A DNA stretch of 63,944 bases, filler included, from Craspedostauros australis (Eukaryota): assembly GCA_030167865.1 (NCBI GenBank). It is 15 parts of 15 records of this genome, joined end to end, with 100 filler letters (N's around TTAATTAATTAA, not from the genome) between each part and the next. Parts side by side here need not be neighbours in the genome. Positions count along the whole stretch, not along the records: positions 49,414 to 52,025 come from JALAGF010000464.1; 14 more parts are not named here. One strand, written 5' to 3'. The notes beneath the pieces were generated by a model. It did no database searches. It was not told the origin of the DNA and saw only the letters and a program-made list of their open reading frames with translations. Position numbers and translations under genes: made by a program. This document shows positions 4,631 through 56,124 of the stretch, one piece after another; position 1 is the stretch's first letter; each line of letters opens with the position of its first letter.

Positions 4631-6074
4631 TCAAGGTGGACCCCCGTAGAACAGGGTTGTGGCAAGAAGTGTTAGTGTTGGCCTCACCAATGCCTTGGTG
4701 AGCATGTCAGCGAAGTTCTGAGCCGATGGGACATGGACTGGAACCAGTGTCCCAGCTCCCACAGCCTCACAGACTCGTTGCAATGACATTGCCACATGCT
4801 TCTTCTGCAATAGGCTGTCTGCAATCGTCGTATTCGAGATCACCACATTGTTGTCGCAGAATGTGACCGTTGGTGATTGGACGCGGACTCTCAGCAATCG
4901 GAGTGCGTATCGGAGTGCAATGATTTCTTCTGTCACTGATCCCATTGCGTTGAATTCTGCTCCATATGTAGACGTTGTGACTGATGTCTGCTGCTTGCTC
5001 GAGAAGTACACAGGCGTCCTGCCGAGGAAAAGGATGATCCCGGTGTTAGATTGGCACGTGACAAGATCGTGCACATGGTCAGCATTGATGAATGCATACA
5101 TTGGCAGCTCTGGATAGATTGTCTTTGGTGACCGGTCGTCGACGTCCTCCTGTGCCTCAGGGTATTCTTCCTTCATTTGCACCACCAATTCTGGGTTGGA
5201 CAGCGTCAAGTTGAAGTTGTCGAATATCATGGGTCTGGAGTTGATTTGTGTTCTGAGTGTGGACTTGCTCTTGAGATAGCCCCATACCTTGAGTGCTCTT
5301 GCTAGATGTCCTTTCCAAGGTGATGCAGTGAATTGAGAGAGTGAAGAAGTTGCAAAGGCGACGTTGAAACGTCCAAGTTGAACAACCCAGTTCAGCATGC
5401 CGATGAGCTGCTGGAACTGTTGGTGTTCATTTGGTGTGAGTAGTTCGGAGTCATCCGTTTCCGGATGGTCCTTGTTCCACATGGACACATGCTGGTCATG
5501 GAGTGTTCCATGCTGCCGTTCGACGTTATCCATCGCGTTTGCGATGTATTTGTCACATCCAATGCTCCATTCGTCTTTCGCATTCCTGGAATTGTCGTTG
5601 CCCAGATAGTATTTGGGTGGTCCAATGTCTTTGATGGTGTAGACTTGCTGGATGGCCTTCATGTATTGGTCTGGTTCATTTGCCACAATCTTGAAGTCAT
5701 TGACATGCATGCATATGTAGTCATACCCAGTGTCGTCCCTCCACTTGATCCACACGTCCTGGTCATGCCGTGATGGAGAGAACCCCATGGATGAGAGTGT
5801 ATTTGCGAAGTGAGCATGGAATCTTTGCGTGCTCGATCGGAGTCCATACAACGCCTGCCTGAGTACAATTGTCTGGCCCTCTCTGTGATCGAACTCTTTT
5901 CCTGCCCTCATGTACATCTTCTCATTGGTGTAGGCATTGACAACTGCATTCCCCATGTCGCCGCAGAGTTGCTTCAGCTTGTTTGCGTCTGCGATGACAT
6001 TGAGTATCCGTGCACTGGTTGAATTGATCGTGGATGAGTATACTCTGATATTGTCAGCGAGTTCGATGAGGTGA
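4631..6074 (-). mobile_element. Ty1/copia RT-RNase H, family A copy 2 (open frame, catalytic motifs degenerate)
   Basis: Open from the gap to ...ADMLTK...FYGGPP*. RT motif reads HVND instead of xVDD and RNase H reads INADH instead of VDADH. Confidence 0.93.
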
Positions 6075-42416: not shown

Positions 42417-43510
42417 TCTGTGTGTACGTAGATGATCTGATGGCCGTCATGGAAGACCCACAGTCATTCTTCGACACGCTCATCAACAAGTACAAGTACA
42501 GGTTGAAAGGTGTAGGACCAATCAAGTATCACCTCGGCGCAGACTTCGACCGAGACAAAGACGGAACCCTGACTATGAGCCCGCAATCNTACATCAAACG
42601 GATGNTGGCGAATTACGAACAGGTGCATGGGGAGCTTCCACGGACCTACACCAGTCCCATGGAACACAACGATGCCCCCGAGCTAGACACATCACGTGAA
42701 CTAAACCCTGTAGAGACCAGACAGTTCCAATCACTCATCGGCGCCCTTCAATGGTGCATCACATTGGGACGGTTTGACATTGCTGCAGCTGTGATGACCT
42801 TGTCTAGATTCAGAGCTCAACCCAGGATTGGTCACATGGACCGCGCTAAACGTGTGTATGGATACCTCCGAAAGCGTTCTGATGCNNNNNNNNNNNNNNN
42901 NNNNNNNNNNNNNNNNNNNNNNNNNNNNNNNNNNNNNNNNNNNNNNNNNNNNNNNNNNNNNNNNNNNNNNNNNNNNNNNNNNNNNNNNNNNNNNNNNNNN
43001 NNNNNNNNNNNNNNNNNNNNNNNNNNNNNNNNNNNNNNNNNNNNNNNNNNNNNNNNNNNNNNNNNNGTGACAGGCAAATCTGCAACTGGTGTTCTCCATC
43101 TGCTCAACCAGACACCCATCGAATGGTTCAGCAAGCGCCAGACCACCGTCGAAACTGCAACCTACGGATCGGAATTCGTCGCGGCAAGACAGGCAACAGA
43201 GCAAGTGATTGCCATGCGCCTTACCCTTCGTGCAATGGGAATTCCGCTGGACGGACCTGCCTGGATGTTCGGAGATAACCAGAGCGTGATCACATCCTCC
43301 ACCATCCCAAACAGTGTGTTATCCAAACGACACAACGCATTGGCGTACCACCGCGTACGTGCCGCAGTAGCTGCGAAGATCCTGCATTTCTGCAAGATAG
43401 ACGGAACGGAAAACGTAGCCGACGTCATGACCAAGTTCCTTCCATGGGCGAAGTACTGGCCGTTAGTGAGGCCACTTCTATTCTGGAAAGGAGAGACTCT
43501 GGGTGGATGA
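42417..43510 (+). mobile_element. Ty1/copia RT-RNase H, family C (CoDi-like), partial
   Basis: YVDD, YHLG, LGRFDI, ETATYGSEF, ADVMTK and LLFWKG motifs. Confidence 0.93.
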
Positions 43511-44869: not shown

Positions 44870-45126
44870 TGTGAGACTGGTCAACGTGGAGTGTTGTTGG
44901 CTGTCCTGGCATGGCACATTCTGTTGTTGCTGCACACGGTCATCACGTTGTCTTGTGGAGGAAGAGTCACACGATGTCTCTTCCTCTGTTGTGACTCGTT
45001 TTTCATGACGTGGAATCCGTCCCCTGTGACGTAGAAGACGGATCAGCGAGAGTAAACACGAAATAGCTCTAAATATCCAATCGCCGTTTCTCCCAAAAGC
45101 AAGCAAACCAGTGGCAACAAGGGGCC

Positions 45127-45199
45127 AAAACTCCACAACTAGTGTTACGACCTGCAGAGAATGTAAAATGGGTCACGATAGCACTAGTTGTGGAGTTTT
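45127..45199. mobile_element. Two back-to-back CACTA-type TIRs (type L 45127-45144, type R 45182-45199) with a 37-bp spacer
   Basis: Perfect 18-bp inverted repeat AAAACTCCACAACTAGTG / CACTAGTTGTGGAGTTTT. Confidence 0.68.
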
Positions 45200-45329
45200 A
45201 CTCGTGATGAGTCGTGATAAAGTAGACTANNNNNNNNNNNNNNNNNNNNNNNNNNNNNNNNNNNNNNNNNNNNTTAATTAATTAANNNNNNNNNNNNNNN
45301 NNNNNNNNNNNNNNNNNNNNNNNNNNNNN

Positions 45330-47944: not shown

Positions 47945-49313
47945 CCCCACGAGTGGAAAAGGATAGTCGGCTCTCAAATTGCGAGTAGAGGCATCATCGG
48001 CGGCGCGGATAGCAGACCGAGGCAGGAGCTGTTGTGTTGCATCGTCGAGCACCCAGAATGTGAGGTCGTCGCCCTTGTGGAGACACGGACCAGCCCAGCG
48101 GCCGCGGCGCTCCTTGGACTCACTCGGGAAGCCAGGACGTTCCACACGGTAGTAGACCGGTTGCCACCAGTAGTACGCAAGGTACTTGCTGACATCNNNN
48201 NNNNNNNNNNNNNNNNNNNNNNNNNNNNNNNNNNNNNNNNNNNNNNNNNNNNNNNNNNNNNNNNNNNNNNNNNNNNNNNNNNNCGTGCAGATGAGCCAGA
48301 ACCGCGACGGAGTACCCGTGCGATCCATGACGCCGTTGACAGTACGTTTGATGTCCTGTATACGGCGCTCGGCCCCGTTCTGGTGTTGGTGCTCCGGCTC
48401 ACTCTGGTGATCCTTTATTGCGTATTGACGCAGGATGTCTTGCACTTTGAATCCCACCTCTGATTTTGCGTTGTCCGACATTAGTAGGTCAGGCGCTCCA
48501 TGCCGACGAATGAAGTCGAGCAAGGAGTCCGCGACCTGCCGCTCGGACGCCATCGGGAATCCCGATGTGTACCGAGAGTCGAGCGCAACGAACACCTGGA
48601 ACATGGTGCAGCCACCATGGCCAGGGACACCGTCATCATGAGCGGGCGTATCAGAGAAGAAAGTGTCCATCGCGACCGTCTCGTGTAGACGATCGACGTT
48701 GGCCGCCGGGAAACGAGTGCGAAAATGCGTGCGCATCGCGAATCGTTCCGAAGTGCGGTACCACTGGGAAGTGCAACCGAGAGTGTCCTTGATCCGACGA
48801 GCAGGGATCCAGCCGAAGTGTGGACGCAGTGCCTCATAGTCGATGGGCGAGTTGCGAACACGAACGGAACTGGAATTGCCAGCGGACCCGGAATGCGGTA
48901 CTGTCCCGCGGGCCTCATCCGTCAATGCCGCATATACATGCAGACGATCGAGGTCGGCGAGCGCGGAACCATCATCATCATCGTCCGCGATAGCGCAGAC
49001 ATCATCAAGACCGAACTCCTGATCGAGGACGGAAGGGTCCCAGACGTCATCGGACGTGAAGTCCACATGAGGGTACTGATCCATCTCAGCAGGGGTCGGT
49101 GGGCGCATGTCCATGTAGGACAGGCCAGCACGGATAGACAGNGGGATGACGTNCCCCTCAGGCGTGACGACAGTTTGTCGACCGCCAGGGAGTCCACGTG
49201 GGCGTTCATTCACATCCATACCAAACGCGGAGAGTTGGTTGGTAGAATGGATGGACTTGCCCTTCCCGTATAGAGCGTACTGGTGGAACTTGGCGATGAT
49301 CGGGCCACTGCTC
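47945..49313 (-). mobile_element. Ty1/copia integrase region (CoDi-like, probably family C), partial
   Basis: DTFFSD, FIRRHGAPDLLMSDNAKSE and QSEPEHQHQNGAERRIQDIK form the DDE core. Confidence 0.9.
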
Positions 49314-49413: not shown

Positions 49414-49743
49414 AACAACACCAGCAGCTCGCATCTGATTCGGGCACAATAACGGGTGCTCAAGACGAGGAAAGTAGATCGATTGTGGGAAGAAAAGGAC
49501 AAATGTTTGGTATGTTACGGGATCATCATATGCTATCGCTGCCGTGACGATTGGCACGTTGTCGATGTTCCCGAGTGAGTCAAGAAAGGGGGTTGCAGTC
49601 ACAGTTTGGTTCGTGGTGTGCACAATGTATGCTGTGTCGCCAAAGCAACATGTGTCAGCGTGTGAGTCGAGCTCCGCTCGCGGCGTATCAGACGCCAGGG
49701 AGAGATTAACAGACGTGATCTGTCGATGCCCTCCATGCTGCGA
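49414..49743 (-). mobile_element. Copia family D protease region, in frame with gag
   Basis: RAELDSHADTCC aspartic protease motif. 49414-49604 is the reverse complement of 52126-52316. Confidence 0.9.
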
Positions 49744-51225
49744 TCAGGAACGGTTGTTTTGGTTACGGCGAGACATCATGGAACCGATACCGGCGGTTTG
49801 ATTGGTACCAGTGCCGTTGGTCTGGTTTGGTGGAGTTGTAGGCCCATAATGGCCGTCCGTATCCTCACGAGTGCGTTTCGCCGGACTGCCTCGGCCAACA
49901 GACATCACACCGCGGCGTTTGTCACGTGCGCCGCGCAACTCCAATGCGCGTCCCTTTTGGGCGGACGACATGACTGCCCACTCCTCAGGGAGATAGTGGC
50001 GGTCAGTGATGACCATGTTGGGGTTGTACTGTTTGGCTCGTCCTTGGCCTCCACGTCCTGGTTTGTTGGCTTGGTAGTGGCCGCCTCGACCGCCGCTGTT
50101 GTTGTTACGTCCCATGGACGAGATTTGACGCGTGGGGGTCGATGCCTGTTTACGGCCGATCACTTCGCTGAGTGCGTTCACGGTGGCGGGGAAGCTGGTA
50201 CGGATGCTTTCGTTGAGCATGATAGCGTCACACGCGGTGGTCAAATGTGGCACACGAATGCCATGCATCAAGTGCCGGACTTTGGCATCCTCGACGAGCG
50301 GCTCACCACATGCAGCCATGTCTTCGAAGGCAGAGTTCAAGCGTTGGGTGTATGTTTCGAATGTGAAGTTGCGTGACTTGCCATCGTAGAAGGTGTTGTT
50401 GATGATGCCTGTCGCGGTTGCCTTGGTTCGGACTTGATAGGAGTCACCGCGGTAATGTTCTTGGAGTGTCAGGTATGCAGTGCGTCCATCTCTGGATCGC
50501 TCATTGCCTTGCACCCAGTTCCATGCTGGACCACCGTGAGTCACGTGGCGGATGACCTGCCATACGGCTGCATTGTCGGCTTTGTGTTTGAGGCCTATAT
50601 GGGTAGCTCGGTCGATGAGCTCCTCCTTGAGGGACGGGGCGCCGAACGGAGTGTTGACGGCTGGCGACCGGTCTTCCGGCTTGAGTGGATTCTCACGGAT
50701 GATGTATGATAGTGGAGCATCACTTGCTCCAAGTGTATTCTCGAGGTAATTTGCGATATCCTCAAGGGTCTTGCGGACGTTGTCCACGCGCGTGAGAGGG
50801 TCGGGCAAGTCCATCGACGGGGCGTCTTTCGCGCGCACTTCCTCCTCAAAGAGGGACCAGAGAGCGTTGAGACGCTCAATCGGTGCTTCGGCAGCGGAGA
50901 AAGGGCGTTGGATACGATCGAAGTGGAAGCGCACATAGCGGAGCTTTCGAAGCTTCAGCTCGTGTACCCATCCGATGGTGATGCCAGGGTCCTTGATTTG
51001 TGCCGGCGTAGTAGAGCGGTTGCCCGATGTCTGAGCTGGATTGGCGACGAGGCCGCTTCCCTTACGGATACGACCACAGAGCTTCTCCAAGTCTTTATCG
51101 GAGAACATCAGAAGGTCGTCGAAGGTGTTCAGTCCTTGCGCGCTGAGTGCTTCACCGATGTCGGCCTTGGTGAAACCCATGACGTTGGTAAGGTAGTTGC
51201 GGATCTCATCGCTGTTGGTCAACAT
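49744..51225 (-). CDS. Copia family D gag (CoDi-type, RGG-rich tail, no CCHC)
   Basis: Open 493-aa frame from MLTNSD with G...PLSYIIR, DGRTAYL.L..HY.G, YDGKSRNFTFETY and Y..EEW motifs. Lies between LTR and protease. Confidence 0.85.
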   Translation of the reverse strand: MLTNSDEIRNYLTNVMGFTKADIGEALSAQGLNTFDDLLMFSDKDLEKLCGRIRKGSGLVANPAQTSGNRSTTPAQIKDPGITIGWVHELKLRKLRYVRFHFDRIQRPFSAAEAPIERLNALWSLFEEEVRAKDAPSMDLPDPLTRVDNVRKTLEDIANYLENTLGASDAPLSYIIRENPLKPEDRSPAVNTPFGAPSLKEELIDRATHIGLKHKADNAAVWQVIRHVTHGGPAWNWVQGNERSRDGRTAYLTLQEHYRGDSYQVRTKATATGIINNTFYDGKSRNFTFETYTQRLNSAFEDMAACGEPLVEDAKVRHLMHGIRVPHLTTACDAIMLNESIRTSFPATVNALSEVIGRKQASTPTRQISSMGRNNNSGGRGGHYQANKPGRGGQGRAKQYNPNMVITDRHYLPEEWAVMSSAQKGRALELRGARDKRRGVMSVGRGSPAKRTREDTDGHYGPTTPPNQTNGTGTNQTAGIGSMMSRRNQNNRS

Positions 51226-51695
51226 GTTGGCTGTCGTATGATTGTTGAATGCAAAAAGGGGAATAAAAGCAGCAAGTCGTTGGATTGTGACAGAAGTCTT
51301 CGCTGGGACAGAGCGTGTTTTGTCGTGTGAGTTTTCGAAGCGTGTGTGTCGGTATTTCGACCCACATTGAGAAGCACGGATGTGGCAACAAGGCACACGA
51401 TCTTTCACTCAGTAGGAGCGCGTGTCTCAGTAGGGGTTCCGCGTGGCCTGCGGTCGGTGCGTCCACCTTGTCTTGCCCTCCACACCACGCCAAAGCGAAC
51501 GGTGGGAGTACATCCCTCTGGCACCGGCCAACATGTACCAGAGCATCATTGTCAAAGGGGATGCAACACGATTCCAAGCTGTGCCGGCTCACGGCGGTCC
51601 ACCCTCAGAGCGGGGTCCCAGTATTATCATCGCCTCTTCAGGCGGTCCCCGCGTGCTTGCGCATGGCCCGCGTGAGCGGATGCGTGATGATAAAC

Positions 51696-51869
51696 CAAGT
51701 TAACACACACACGGATTGTCATTGAGGGTTGGAAACCCAAAGGATTCAGATTATAAGGGTTATAGGGTCGTGTAGGATTGTCAGAGAGTACACTGTTCTC
51801 CTGTAGTTGGGCGATGCCCGTGTTCGCAAGCTAACCCCATTTTAACCGTTTCACATGCATCCCTGTTTG
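51696..51869 (-). repeat. Copia family D putative 5' LTR (inner boundary tentative)
   Basis: Minus strand CAAACAGGGATGCATGTGAAACGGTTAAAATGGGGTTA matches 56086-56124. Confidence 0.65.
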
Positions 51870-51981
51870 CACGCGAATGAAATACAACCCCAAACAGAAC
51901 CGTCTCGCACAACATCGAAATGTGACGCGCGACTTCGTAAAAAGTACTACCTCCAGGTCGCAGTTGATGCACTCACGATAA

Positions 51982-52025
51982 CACTAGTTGTGGAGTTTTG
52001 GCCCCTTGTTGTCACTGGTTTGCTT
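51982..52025 (+). mobile_element. CACTA-type end (type L), second copy, at contig edge
   Basis: CACTAGTTGTGGAGTTTTGGCCCCTTGTTG matches the reverse of 45101-45144. Confidence 0.65.
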
Positions 52026-52125: not shown

Positions 52126-55100
52126 ACTGTGACTGCAACCCCCTTTCTTGACTCACTCGGGAACATCGACAACGTGCCAATCGTCACGGCAGCGATAGCA
52201 TATGATGATCCCGTAACATACCAAACATTTGTCCTTTTCTTCCCACAATCGATCTACTTTCCTCGTCTTGAGCACCCGTTATTGTGCCCGAATCAGATGC
52301 GAGCTGCTGGTGTTGTTATTAATGATGTTCCATTACTCATGATCAATGAGGATGAACGGAAACCGGAGGATCACTCGGTGATCTCCTCCCTTAACAACCT
52401 CCACATCCCGCTCCGACTACGTGGTACCATATCGTACTTCCACACAAGAAAACCGACACGACAAGAAGTCCAATCCGACCATGATTGCGTCCATGTCATG
52501 ATGACACAGGAGTCCACTTGGGACCCAGCACACTGGTCGGCAGGGGACGACGAGGACGCCATCAGAATGACCGTCCCCACAACTCCAACATCCATGTCGC
52601 CAACCATCCTACGCGAAATCAAGGCAGTCAGCGGAACGCAGTCCTCCAATCGAAAGGGGACGATCACACCAGAAGCACTGGCACGACGCTGGCGCATCGG
52701 TGTTGATGCAGCTACACGGACGTTGCAGGCCACGACGCATCTCGCTATGCGTGACTTCCGAAACACCACAGGCACACGACGGCTCAACCCATATGCCATG
52801 CAACTCCGCTACCGCCGCCTAAACACACAAGTGTATGCCGACACGATGCATGCGAAAACGAAGTCGATCCGTGGCAACAAATGTGCGATGATATATTGCA
52901 CACCATTCCACTGGGTTCGTGTGTATCCGATGACGGAACGCAAGAACGCACACCTCACCCTTGATGAGATGTTTCGCGATCATGGCATTCCTCACACGAT
53001 CATACCCGACAACGCGAAGGAGCTCGTGGCTGGCGAGTTCCGTCGCAAACTGCACAAGGCGCAAGTGTCCATCCGTCCGATCGAGGCGTACATACACAAC
53101 CAAAACCGTGCAGAGGCGACTATCCGCGAACTGCGTCGCCACTATCGCCGCTTGATGACTTCCACTAACACGCCCGAATATCTGTGGGACTACTGCTTTG
53201 AATACTGCGCGGAGATCCGAAGTCACACAGCGCTATCTGTATACGACCTGCATGGAGAGACACCCGCCACTATCCTGTCAGGCGACACAGCCGACATCTC
53301 ACACATTGCCGAATTTGCATGGTTTGACTTTGTCTGGTACATCAACATACAGGATGCCTCCATGAACGTGAAGCAACTCGGACGCTATCTGGGGCCAAGC
53401 CGTTCTGTCGGCGAGGCCATGTGCTCGTACATACTCACCGCCAATGGCGTCGTTGTCTCCAAATCCTCTGTCTTACCTCTCTCACACGATGACACAAACG
53501 ACGACGTACTCCAACAGAAACAAACCGACTTCATGACAAAACTCAGTACCAAATGGAACAAACGCATGGAAGGCATGGAACCAGACGATGATGGTGACGA
53601 AGTGGATGACACCGCTGCCGACATCGCATACCTACAGAATACAGAACCTATGGAGCCCATCGTCGAACCCGAAGATGTCGCCAGCGAAGTATACGATCGA
53701 TACATAACTGCAAAGGTCGTCTTGCCAACAGGGGACGAAATGCGATTCGGCACTGTGAAGCGAAGGAAACGAGACGCAGACGGCAACCTCATCGGCCATT
53801 CGCACGACAATCCGATGCTCGACACATCACGTTATGAGGTCGAATTCCTCGACGGACATCAAGAGGCATTCAGTGCCAACCAGATCGCAGAGAACATTTA
53901 TGCTCGTGTCGACGACGATGGATACGAGACCGTCCTCATGGACGAGATCATCGACCACAAACGCTTACCCTCTGTCTCTTTTGCTTCTCACAAAACGAAA
54001 TCCACGAAAGGATGGAAACTGTGCATACGCTGGAAAGATGGATCAACCTCATGGATACACTTGCGTGACGCGAAGGAGGCCGACCCCGTCCGTGTGGCTG
54101 AATACGCGGAGGCCAATCTCCTTATCAACGAACCAGCATTCAAGTGGTGGGTGCCACACACCCTCCGCAAACGACAGCGCATCATCATGGCAACCAAACG
54201 GAGACAAGTGCGCAAACAAGAGATGTTCGGTGTTGCGCTACCGACCTCCGTGCGACATGCACTCGCTATCGATGCGGAATCGGGCACTGACATGTGGCGT
54301 AAGGCGATCGAGAAAGAGATGAAAGCCGTGCGCCCTGCCTTTGATATCAAAGAGACCGACACGCCCAATCCCGTTGGACATCAATACATGGAGTGCCACA
54401 TGATCTTCGCGGTGAAGGTCGACCTCACACGAAAAGCACGATTGGTGGCTGGTGGCCACATGACAGAGGCACCAGCGGCCATCACCTATGCGAGTGTGGT
54501 GTCACGCGAGAGTGTGCGCATCGCATTCTTGCTTGCTGCGCTCAACGATTGCAACATACTGGCAGCCGACGTCCAAAACGCATACTTGAACGCGCCGTGC
54601 AGAGAACGAATATACACACGATGCGGACCCGAGTTCGGGTCCGATCAAGGCAAGATTGCCGTCATTTGTCGGGCCTTGTACGGCCTGAAGTCCAGCGGAG
54701 CCGCTTGGCGCGCGCATCTGGCTGAGACACTGCGCGATTCGATGGGATACACATCCTGCCGCGCAGACAGCGACGTCTGGATGAAACCAGCTGTGGCGAG
54801 CGATGGGTCAGAGTATTATGAATACGTGCTTGTGTATACAGACGACATCCTTGCGGTGTCCAAACAACCCCAGCGCATCCTAGATGCAATCGGCTCACAC
54901 TTCTTCCTCAAACCGAGTTCCATCGGCCCTCCTACCACTTACCTTGGCTCCACTATTGCGCCATACCACATTGACTCTGATGCAACACGTCCCAAATGGA
55001 GCATGGGATCACGTGCCTACATACGAGCCGCCATCAAGATCGTGACGAAATGGCTCACAGACCGACAAGGGCGTCTCAAGACAAAGGCACCCAGTGTGAT

Positions 55101-56077: not shown

Positions 56078-56124
56078 GAGGGGACCAAACAGGGATACGT
56101 GTGAAACGGTTAAAACGGGGTTAA
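56078..56124 (+). repeat. Family D polypurine tract and start of 3' LTR (56086)
   Basis: GAGGGG-AC followed by 39 nt matching the 5' LTR start. Confidence 0.72.

Follow-up and report, generated by a model that had tools for sequence, protein, structure and literature searches.

In a Ty1/copia retrotransposon of the diatom Craspedostauros australis, gag and pol lie in one reading frame and are divided by a single UGA codon. The stop is fixed, in frame, old and found clade-wide. Programmed readthrough of this codon, setting the ratio of Gag to Pol, is the best reading of the sequences and one that we consider probable.

The element and its copies

The window, by which we mean the whole stretch of DNA analysed (63,944 nucleotides, positions 1-63944), comprises 15 contigs joined by N-TTAATTAATTAA-N spacers, and neighbouring parts are not physically linked. 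The element starts on the minus strand of the contig at 49414-52025, here the gag contig, with a 5′ LTR of 174 nt (51696-51869, minus strand) that is without TG...CA ends and matches both LTRs of loci L060 and L051 at 95-96%. Just inside it is a candidate primer-binding-site motif (51688-51695, minus strand), the role being suggested by position; the same 7-mer, TTTATCA, follows the 5′ LTR in L051, L060, L054 and L045, which represent three families. The gag gene (49744-51225, minus strand) runs from an ATG at 51225 through 493 codons to the TGA. Its C-terminal third is rich in glycine and arginine and no Pfam family was matched.

The TGA (49746-49744, minus strand, context UCC-UGA-UCG) ends gag after NNRS and the same frame continues to ELDSHADTCC, as a sequence-only reading had described. 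The 110 codons that follow, spacer and protease (49414-49743, minus strand), stay open to the contig end at 49414. The aspartic protease active-site motif of the element's clade, DSHAD (49654-49668, minus strand), was assigned by motif reading, and we take its aspartate to be catalytic; a Pfam search of the protease region was blank. This aspartate is codon 26 after the stop and the first methionine is codon 104, 78 codons further on, which bears out the claim that no ATG lies between stop and protease motif.

The remainder of pol (PR-IN-chromo-RT-RH) occupies the plus strand of the next contig (52126-55914), where 1258 codons were read, ending in TAA, and the two contigs share 192 identical overlapping bases. 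A polypurine tract (56078-56085) and the first 39 nt of the 3′ LTR follow (together 56078-56124, plus strand, by sequence reading). By eye those 39 nt differ from the 5′ LTR of the gag contig at four positions and, because of this, the two contigs may be different copies. The claim that gag and pol contain no other stop holds for the 493 codons of gag and for the 1258 open codons of pol, with the caveat that the long pol is on a separate contig and maybe belongs to another copy. Copies on single contigs repeat the gag-TGA-pol layout: in L051 gag is open and the frame past the stop stays open for 1308 codons, in L052-L056 for 1300.

An LTR pair with a polypurine tract places the element among the Ty1/copia LTR retrotransposons, and the pol order PR-IN-RT-RH is copia-type: an RVT_2 match (E 1.8e-16, residues 745-938) lies downstream of a weak rve match (E 0.017, below the cut-off), whilst PR and RH were read from motifs. 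A structure model of the integrase end (53938-54114, plus strand, pLDDT 76.6) adopts a chromo-like fold. Its top Foldseek matches are chromoshadow domains (probability 1.00, RMSD 1.2-1.6 Å over about 60 residues), and nearly all matches listed are chromo or chromoshadow domains, the best E value being 0.095. Chromo-domain searches at the sequence level gave weak results. The accessible part of one paper gives a chromo domain at the integrase C-terminus as the mark of CoDi-A elements (PMC2774666). Judged by the model, we have here a Ty1/copia retrotransposon of CoDi-A-like type, its integrase being followed by a chromo-fold. We note that the model ranks nearer to chromoshadow than to histone-binding chromodomains in Foldseek, with weak scores.

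Other repeats are present in the window. A separate copia protease/integrase fragment with a weak rve match (47945-49313, minus strand) comes next when the gag contig is read along that strand and might be mistaken for its continuation; it is only 22% identical to the element's pol. Further copia RT/RH pieces occur at 839-2479 and 4679-6073 (both minus strand) and at 42422-43435 (plus strand). Upstream of the 5′ LTR (about 51975-52025) the flank has, by eye, some 45 nt in common with a partly inverted repeat at 45095-45200 on another contig, perhaps another repeat family.

Is the stop a feature of one copy or of the family? At least 50 loci of the genome were examined as the best-scoring candidates, and 40 of these fall into five subfamilies (A, which includes the window copy, 11; B, 18; C, 3; D1, 4; D2, 4), with 36 distinct junction sequences; some may be alleles. 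TGA occupies this one codon throughout the 40 copies, in the element's own subfamily and in its four sisters alike, and none has a sense codon there, CGA or other, as most copies should if the stop were a chance lesion. Over about 120 codons in each of the 40 copies, 60 on either side of the TGA, only four other stops occur. The caution that CGA to TGA decay might explain the codon is not upheld by these counts. Five loci (L011, L036, L040, L042 and L050) were left out of the junction count, their junction being either not spanned or covered by N. TGA is also present in two more distant families of the genome (protease identity 32-46%). L045 and L046 have TGA-C 27 codons before the catalytic aspartate; in L047 and L048 the distance from TGA-C to it is 69 codons and a Trp-rich hydrophobic stretch comes after the stop, and L049 is unreadable at the junction.

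LTR pairs were sought in eight elements, three of which had no pair in the stretch covered. In L051, L054 and L045 the LTR stretches compared are 100% identical, in L060 98%, and therefore young insertions carry the stop. Among the stop-bearing copies are some with an open gag and an open pol of 1300-1370 codons. The observed/expected CpG ratio in the window copy (1.09 and 1.16) shows no depletion. This comparison of copies shows a junction stop that is real and has been inherited, and is no product of decay. We also rejected a changed genetic code: TGA terminates pol in many copies and is absent within the gag and pol of the element described above.

The junction among relatives

A protease profile search of metagenome contigs gave 261 confirmed loci, the best 80 of which were analysed. 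In a protease tree of these relatives 30 loci fall in two mostly single-ORF subclades, although we caution that the groups were drawn after the tree and the stop states had been seen. Outside these subclades (50 loci of the best 80 of 261) there are 47 with TGA, one with TAG-C, one with no stop within 75 codons and one too short to read. The base after TGA is C in 37, A in five, T in three and G in two, one TGA-T locus (L073) being a decayed copy. Within the single-ORF subclades (30 loci of the same best 80) 22 have no stop within 75 codons, one is too short and seven have stray stops, namely TAA-A, TAG-G in three identical copies, TAG-T and TGA-A twice. In an unrooted tree from a longer marker (35 thinned rows) two changes of stop state are needed, as against 4.7 with shuffled labels, and the five single-ORF rows form a cluster that also takes in one stray TAA row. 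Loci with gag and pol in a single ORF are L084, L091, L095, L104, L107, L138 and L139, to which the protein P0098 can be added.

A gag was matched upstream in 40 of the 50 loci, and in 34 of the 40 it shares the frame of pol and runs to that single stop; 30 were classified automatically and four (L067, L069, L075 and L118) have a single stop by nearest-stop count. The other six are broken or frameshifted (L073, L082, L094, L099, L109 and L112). The spacer between stop and protease varies from 22 to 70 codons across relatives. In protein sets the best 150 gag relatives are all of 574 residues or fewer, and 78 of 79 motif-bearing pol relatives start within 70 residues of the motif, the remaining one being fused (1801 residues); the pol search was restricted to 691-2202 residues, the starts are the choice of gene callers, and two gag-starting proteins (P0007 and P0067) were missed by the motif pattern. 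The named relatives of the element are from diatoms and the Atlas cluster nearest to gag is mostly Bacillariophyta. Viral contigs yielded 20 pattern matches and no confirmed relative.

Nucleotide context was compared in 45 hand-picked lineage representatives, seven from the genome and 38 from metagenomes, with the single-ORF subclades left out except for L131. TGA is the stop in 44 of the 45 and C follows it in 35. The next codon is CTG in ten, CGG in five, CAA and CTC in four each, and CTA and CAT in three each. The only TAG lineage, L128 from a metagenome, reads TAG-CAA-CTA, the tobamovirus-type CAR-YYA context. UGA-CUA/CGG and UAG-CAR-YYA are known as type II and type I readthrough motifs, respectively, in the accessible part of PMC3159437. 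At 12 pol ends, used as a control, TGA occurs six times and TAG and TAA three times each, with C next in three. The differences between junctions and pol ends give Fisher p values of 0.0002 for TGA (44/45 against 6/12) and 0.001 for C at position +4, values that are too small since the lineages are related. The window copy, with UGA-UCG, does not match the type II motif, and in its subfamily A the junction is UGA-U in 11 of 11 copies, the usual +4 C being absent. The stop context alone proves little because TGA-C also terminates pol in subfamily B (L052-L058) and at three of the 12 other pol ends.

The spacer and the downstream hairpin

Several measures address whether the stretch after the stop is translated. 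In comparisons between subfamilies, pN is 0.28 and pS 0.82 over the 14 codons that precede the protease motif, the corresponding values for the protease being 0.14 and 0.73. Within subfamilies the pN/pS-type ratio for the whole spacer is 0.40 in A and 0.33 in B. In codons 1-11 after the stop, which lie upstream of an ATG present in subfamily B, variant alleles at first, second and third codon positions number 4/6/10 in A and 5/4/12 in B, a third-position bias. By these substitution patterns the codons after the stop are selected as protein. An RxIxS-like motif is present in the spacers of 16 of the 45 lineages, where shuffles lead one to expect 3.0; it recurs twice in gag and after the protease, and it was defined after seeing the data. 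In the window copy it reads RQITS (49711-49725, minus strand), upstream of the protease, and we propose it as a candidate protease cleavage site.

The sequence-only reading had also placed a stem-loop after a 9-nt spacer and linked it to the stimulation of readthrough that such structures often bring. The spacer (49743-49735) and the hairpin (49734-49699, minus strand) are as described, the latter being the minimum-energy fold, with an inner stem at 49724-49708 and a purine/pyrimidine-rich outer stem. The z-score depends on the window folded, at -1.26 for 87 nt and -2.09, -1.78 and -2.29 in three others. In the 55 nt after the stop, a folding window chosen to fit the hairpin, z is -2 or lower in 9 of 11 copies of A, 3 of 4 of D1, 4 of 4 of D2, 2 of 18 of B and 0 of 3 of C. 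Subfamily B preserves the inner stem of A, one A-U pair having become G-C, and subfamily D folds a hairpin at this position in a different register. The outer stem in A pairs at 70-86% in all seven registers tried. Synonymous variation shows no dip at the hairpin (0.65, against 0.34-0.72 in neighbouring 9-codon blocks), and no conserved RNA element emerged from a scan of synonymous sites around the active site, from codon -18 to codon +90. The proposed role is accordingly narrowed: folding in A and D and the inner stem of B speak for it, the weak folding in B and C and the lack of a synonymous dip against.

Across the 45 lineages z falls below -2 in the 70 nt after the stop in 14, compared with three or four in each of four neighbouring windows, and eight of the 14 belong to one clade. 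Eight members of that clade have a 12-bp stem starting 7 nt after the stop, in which 94.8% of cells pair; one pair switches between C-G and U-A, four sequences against four, an outcome reached in 16 of 500 shuffles and so a modest test. From these folds the downstream hairpin recurs but is not universal, and it appears not to be essential family-wide. It is probably a stimulator in some lineages, including the window subfamily with its +4 U, and not required in all.

Readthrough, its rivals and its precedents

The earlier proposal that Gag-Pol is made by UGA readthrough gains support from the fixed stop, the readthrough-type contexts in relatives and the constraint on the spacer as protein. 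One LTR-driven RNA would be translated from the gag ATG and most ribosomes would terminate at the UGA, releasing Gag. In a small share a near-cognate tRNA would read the UGA, and translation would go on without a change of frame to yield Gag-Pol, which would be packed together with Gag. The protease could then release itself by cutting at the RxIxS-like site about 19 residues before the catalytic aspartate. The stop would fix the Gag:Pol ratio; that it is bypassed by readthrough, to what level, with which residue inserted and with what help from the hairpin is what we infer.

Could pol have a start of its own, whether ribosomes reinitiate past the gag stop, begin at a non-AUG codon or translate an RNA made from an internal promoter? 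A spacer ATG is present in 22 of the 45 lineages, subfamily B included, CUG directly follows the stop in ten, and a weak junction promoter was seen in Tca2 of Candida albicans (PMC2194720, accessible part). In the remaining 23 lineages the spacer has no ATG, and the window copy has none before the active site. Separate initiation would not keep gag and pol in one frame, as they are in 34 of 40 loci, nor would it favour TGA over TAA and TAG as the junctions do relative to pol ends, in lineages that are not fully independent. The cleavage-like motif upstream of the protease would in addition imply a longer precursor. We regard this route as unlikely.

Distinctly unlikely, too, is a minor splice that removes the stop and joins gag to pol, with YUGAY around the stop as the branch point. 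At most 28 of the 40 copies have any one splice-acceptor AG in common, and at most 27 any one GT in the 300 nt upstream, whilst across lineages the first AG is found anywhere from 0 to 141 nt past the stop. The stop context is often CUGAY or UUGAC, which resembles the branch-point consensus, and the base at -1 is C or T in 29 of the 45 lineages. TAA would suit a branch point equally well, yet it occurs at none of the 50 loci outside the single-ORF subclades (best 80 of 261). The mostly third-position variation in codons 1-11 also tells against splicing. In plant and fly copia the Gag:Pol ratio is set by splicing, but there, according to the accessible parts of PMC5580714 and PMC2194720, it is a short gag RNA that is made.

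Very improbable in our view is a dedicated decoding of UGA, by selenocysteine or a special tRNA, or a hop between the matched Ser codons of UCC-UGA-UCG. Dedicated decoding would suit a stop that is nearly always UGA and often has a 3′ hairpin, and hopping would suit the Ser codons on both sides of the stop in subfamily A; B, C and D lack the matched codons. Eight elements gave no match to any Rfam family, SECIS among them, at E ≤ 1, though a SECIS search of the genome matched none of the controls either. Dedicated decoding is also at odds with normal termination of pol by TGA in many elements and with the lineage that has TAG and the CAR-YYA motif. Mutational decay of CGA to TGA in a dead element can be dismissed almost outright, since, whilst stray stops do occur within 75 codons in seven of the 30 single-ORF-subclade loci (that of L068 standing where its relative L065 reads Arg), they are TAA, TAG or TGA-A and never TGA-C, CpG is not depleted in the window copy, and the junction stop is shared at one codon by all 40 copies with few others nearby and is carried by young copies with an open pol.

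Programmed readthrough, the reading we prefer, has precedents. Retroviruses, RNA viruses and yeast retrotransposons are well known to use the mechanism, and the surprise is moderate. Among the closest is the Ty1/copia element Tca2, in which gag and pol are in frame and split by UGA and Pol comes from an LTR-driven RNA (PMC2194720; statements on Tca2 refer to the accessible part). Tca2 resembles the present element in being a copia with an in-frame UGA and a structure predicted about 8-9 nt downstream; it differs in its fungal host and in the pseudoknot proposed there, as opposed to a simple stem-loop. In Saccharomyces cerevisiae 300 nt around the Tca2 junction gave 0.3% readthrough, which counts as none, and held a weak promoter (PMC2194720). 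By analogy this is a warning against taking a similar junction as readthrough.

Other comparisons likewise draw on the accessible parts of the sources. VdLTRE5 of Verticillium dahliae is a copia with UGA between gag and pol, called rare and without CARYYA (PMC3441728); it is known from two copies in one fungus, whereas here most of the relatives sampled from a diatom-type clade have the stop layout. Tj1, Tcry1 and Tosmo1-3 of fission yeasts have an in-frame TGA followed by CTA or CTG, their sister elements are single-ORF, and in Tj1 the stop is reported to be essential (10.1101/2022.12.06.519325). These are Ty3/gypsy elements with a strictly conserved 8-nt context, whereas here only TGA and, mostly, the +4 C are kept. 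The type II signals of alphaviruses and of tobra- and furoviruses, seen in many relatives, place a stem-loop 7-12 nt beyond UGA-CUA or UGA-CGG (PMC3159437). The window copy differs in its UGA-UCG, its short and local hairpin and the absence of a peak of synonymous-site conservation.

CoDi elements were noted to have at most one stop or frameshift separating gag from pol, left without comment (PMC2806351), and in the accessible parts of the CoDi and CoDi-A papers (PMC2806351, PMC2774666) the stop is neither called programmed nor given a context. The corresponding parts of PMC6875170, PMC8147415 and PMC7017206 contain nothing on the gag-pol junction. Our literature search, which most subscription papers lay outside, found no paper on gag-pol readthrough in diatom copia.

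The gag-stop-pol arrangement has been called rare in copia, and its mechanism is unresolved even in the best-studied case, Tca2. The present clade offers dozens of natural junction variants in transformable hosts, making the question testable. Annotation that sorts diatom LTR elements into intact and dead ones should not treat a stop of this kind as damage. With belief and doubt evenly balanced, we suggest that readthrough is the old default route to Pol in a large clade of diatom chromodomain-bearing copia elements and that its signal is modular and exchangeable. If so, its variants would be UGA-C alone, UGA-C followed after 7-9 nt by a hairpin, UAG-CAA-CUA in a single lineage and, in the window subfamily, UGA-U with a stronger hairpin, whilst one branch uses a single ORF instead. 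The clade would then provide a natural series for the trade-off between stop context and RNA structure, and a case of programmed readthrough in diatoms.
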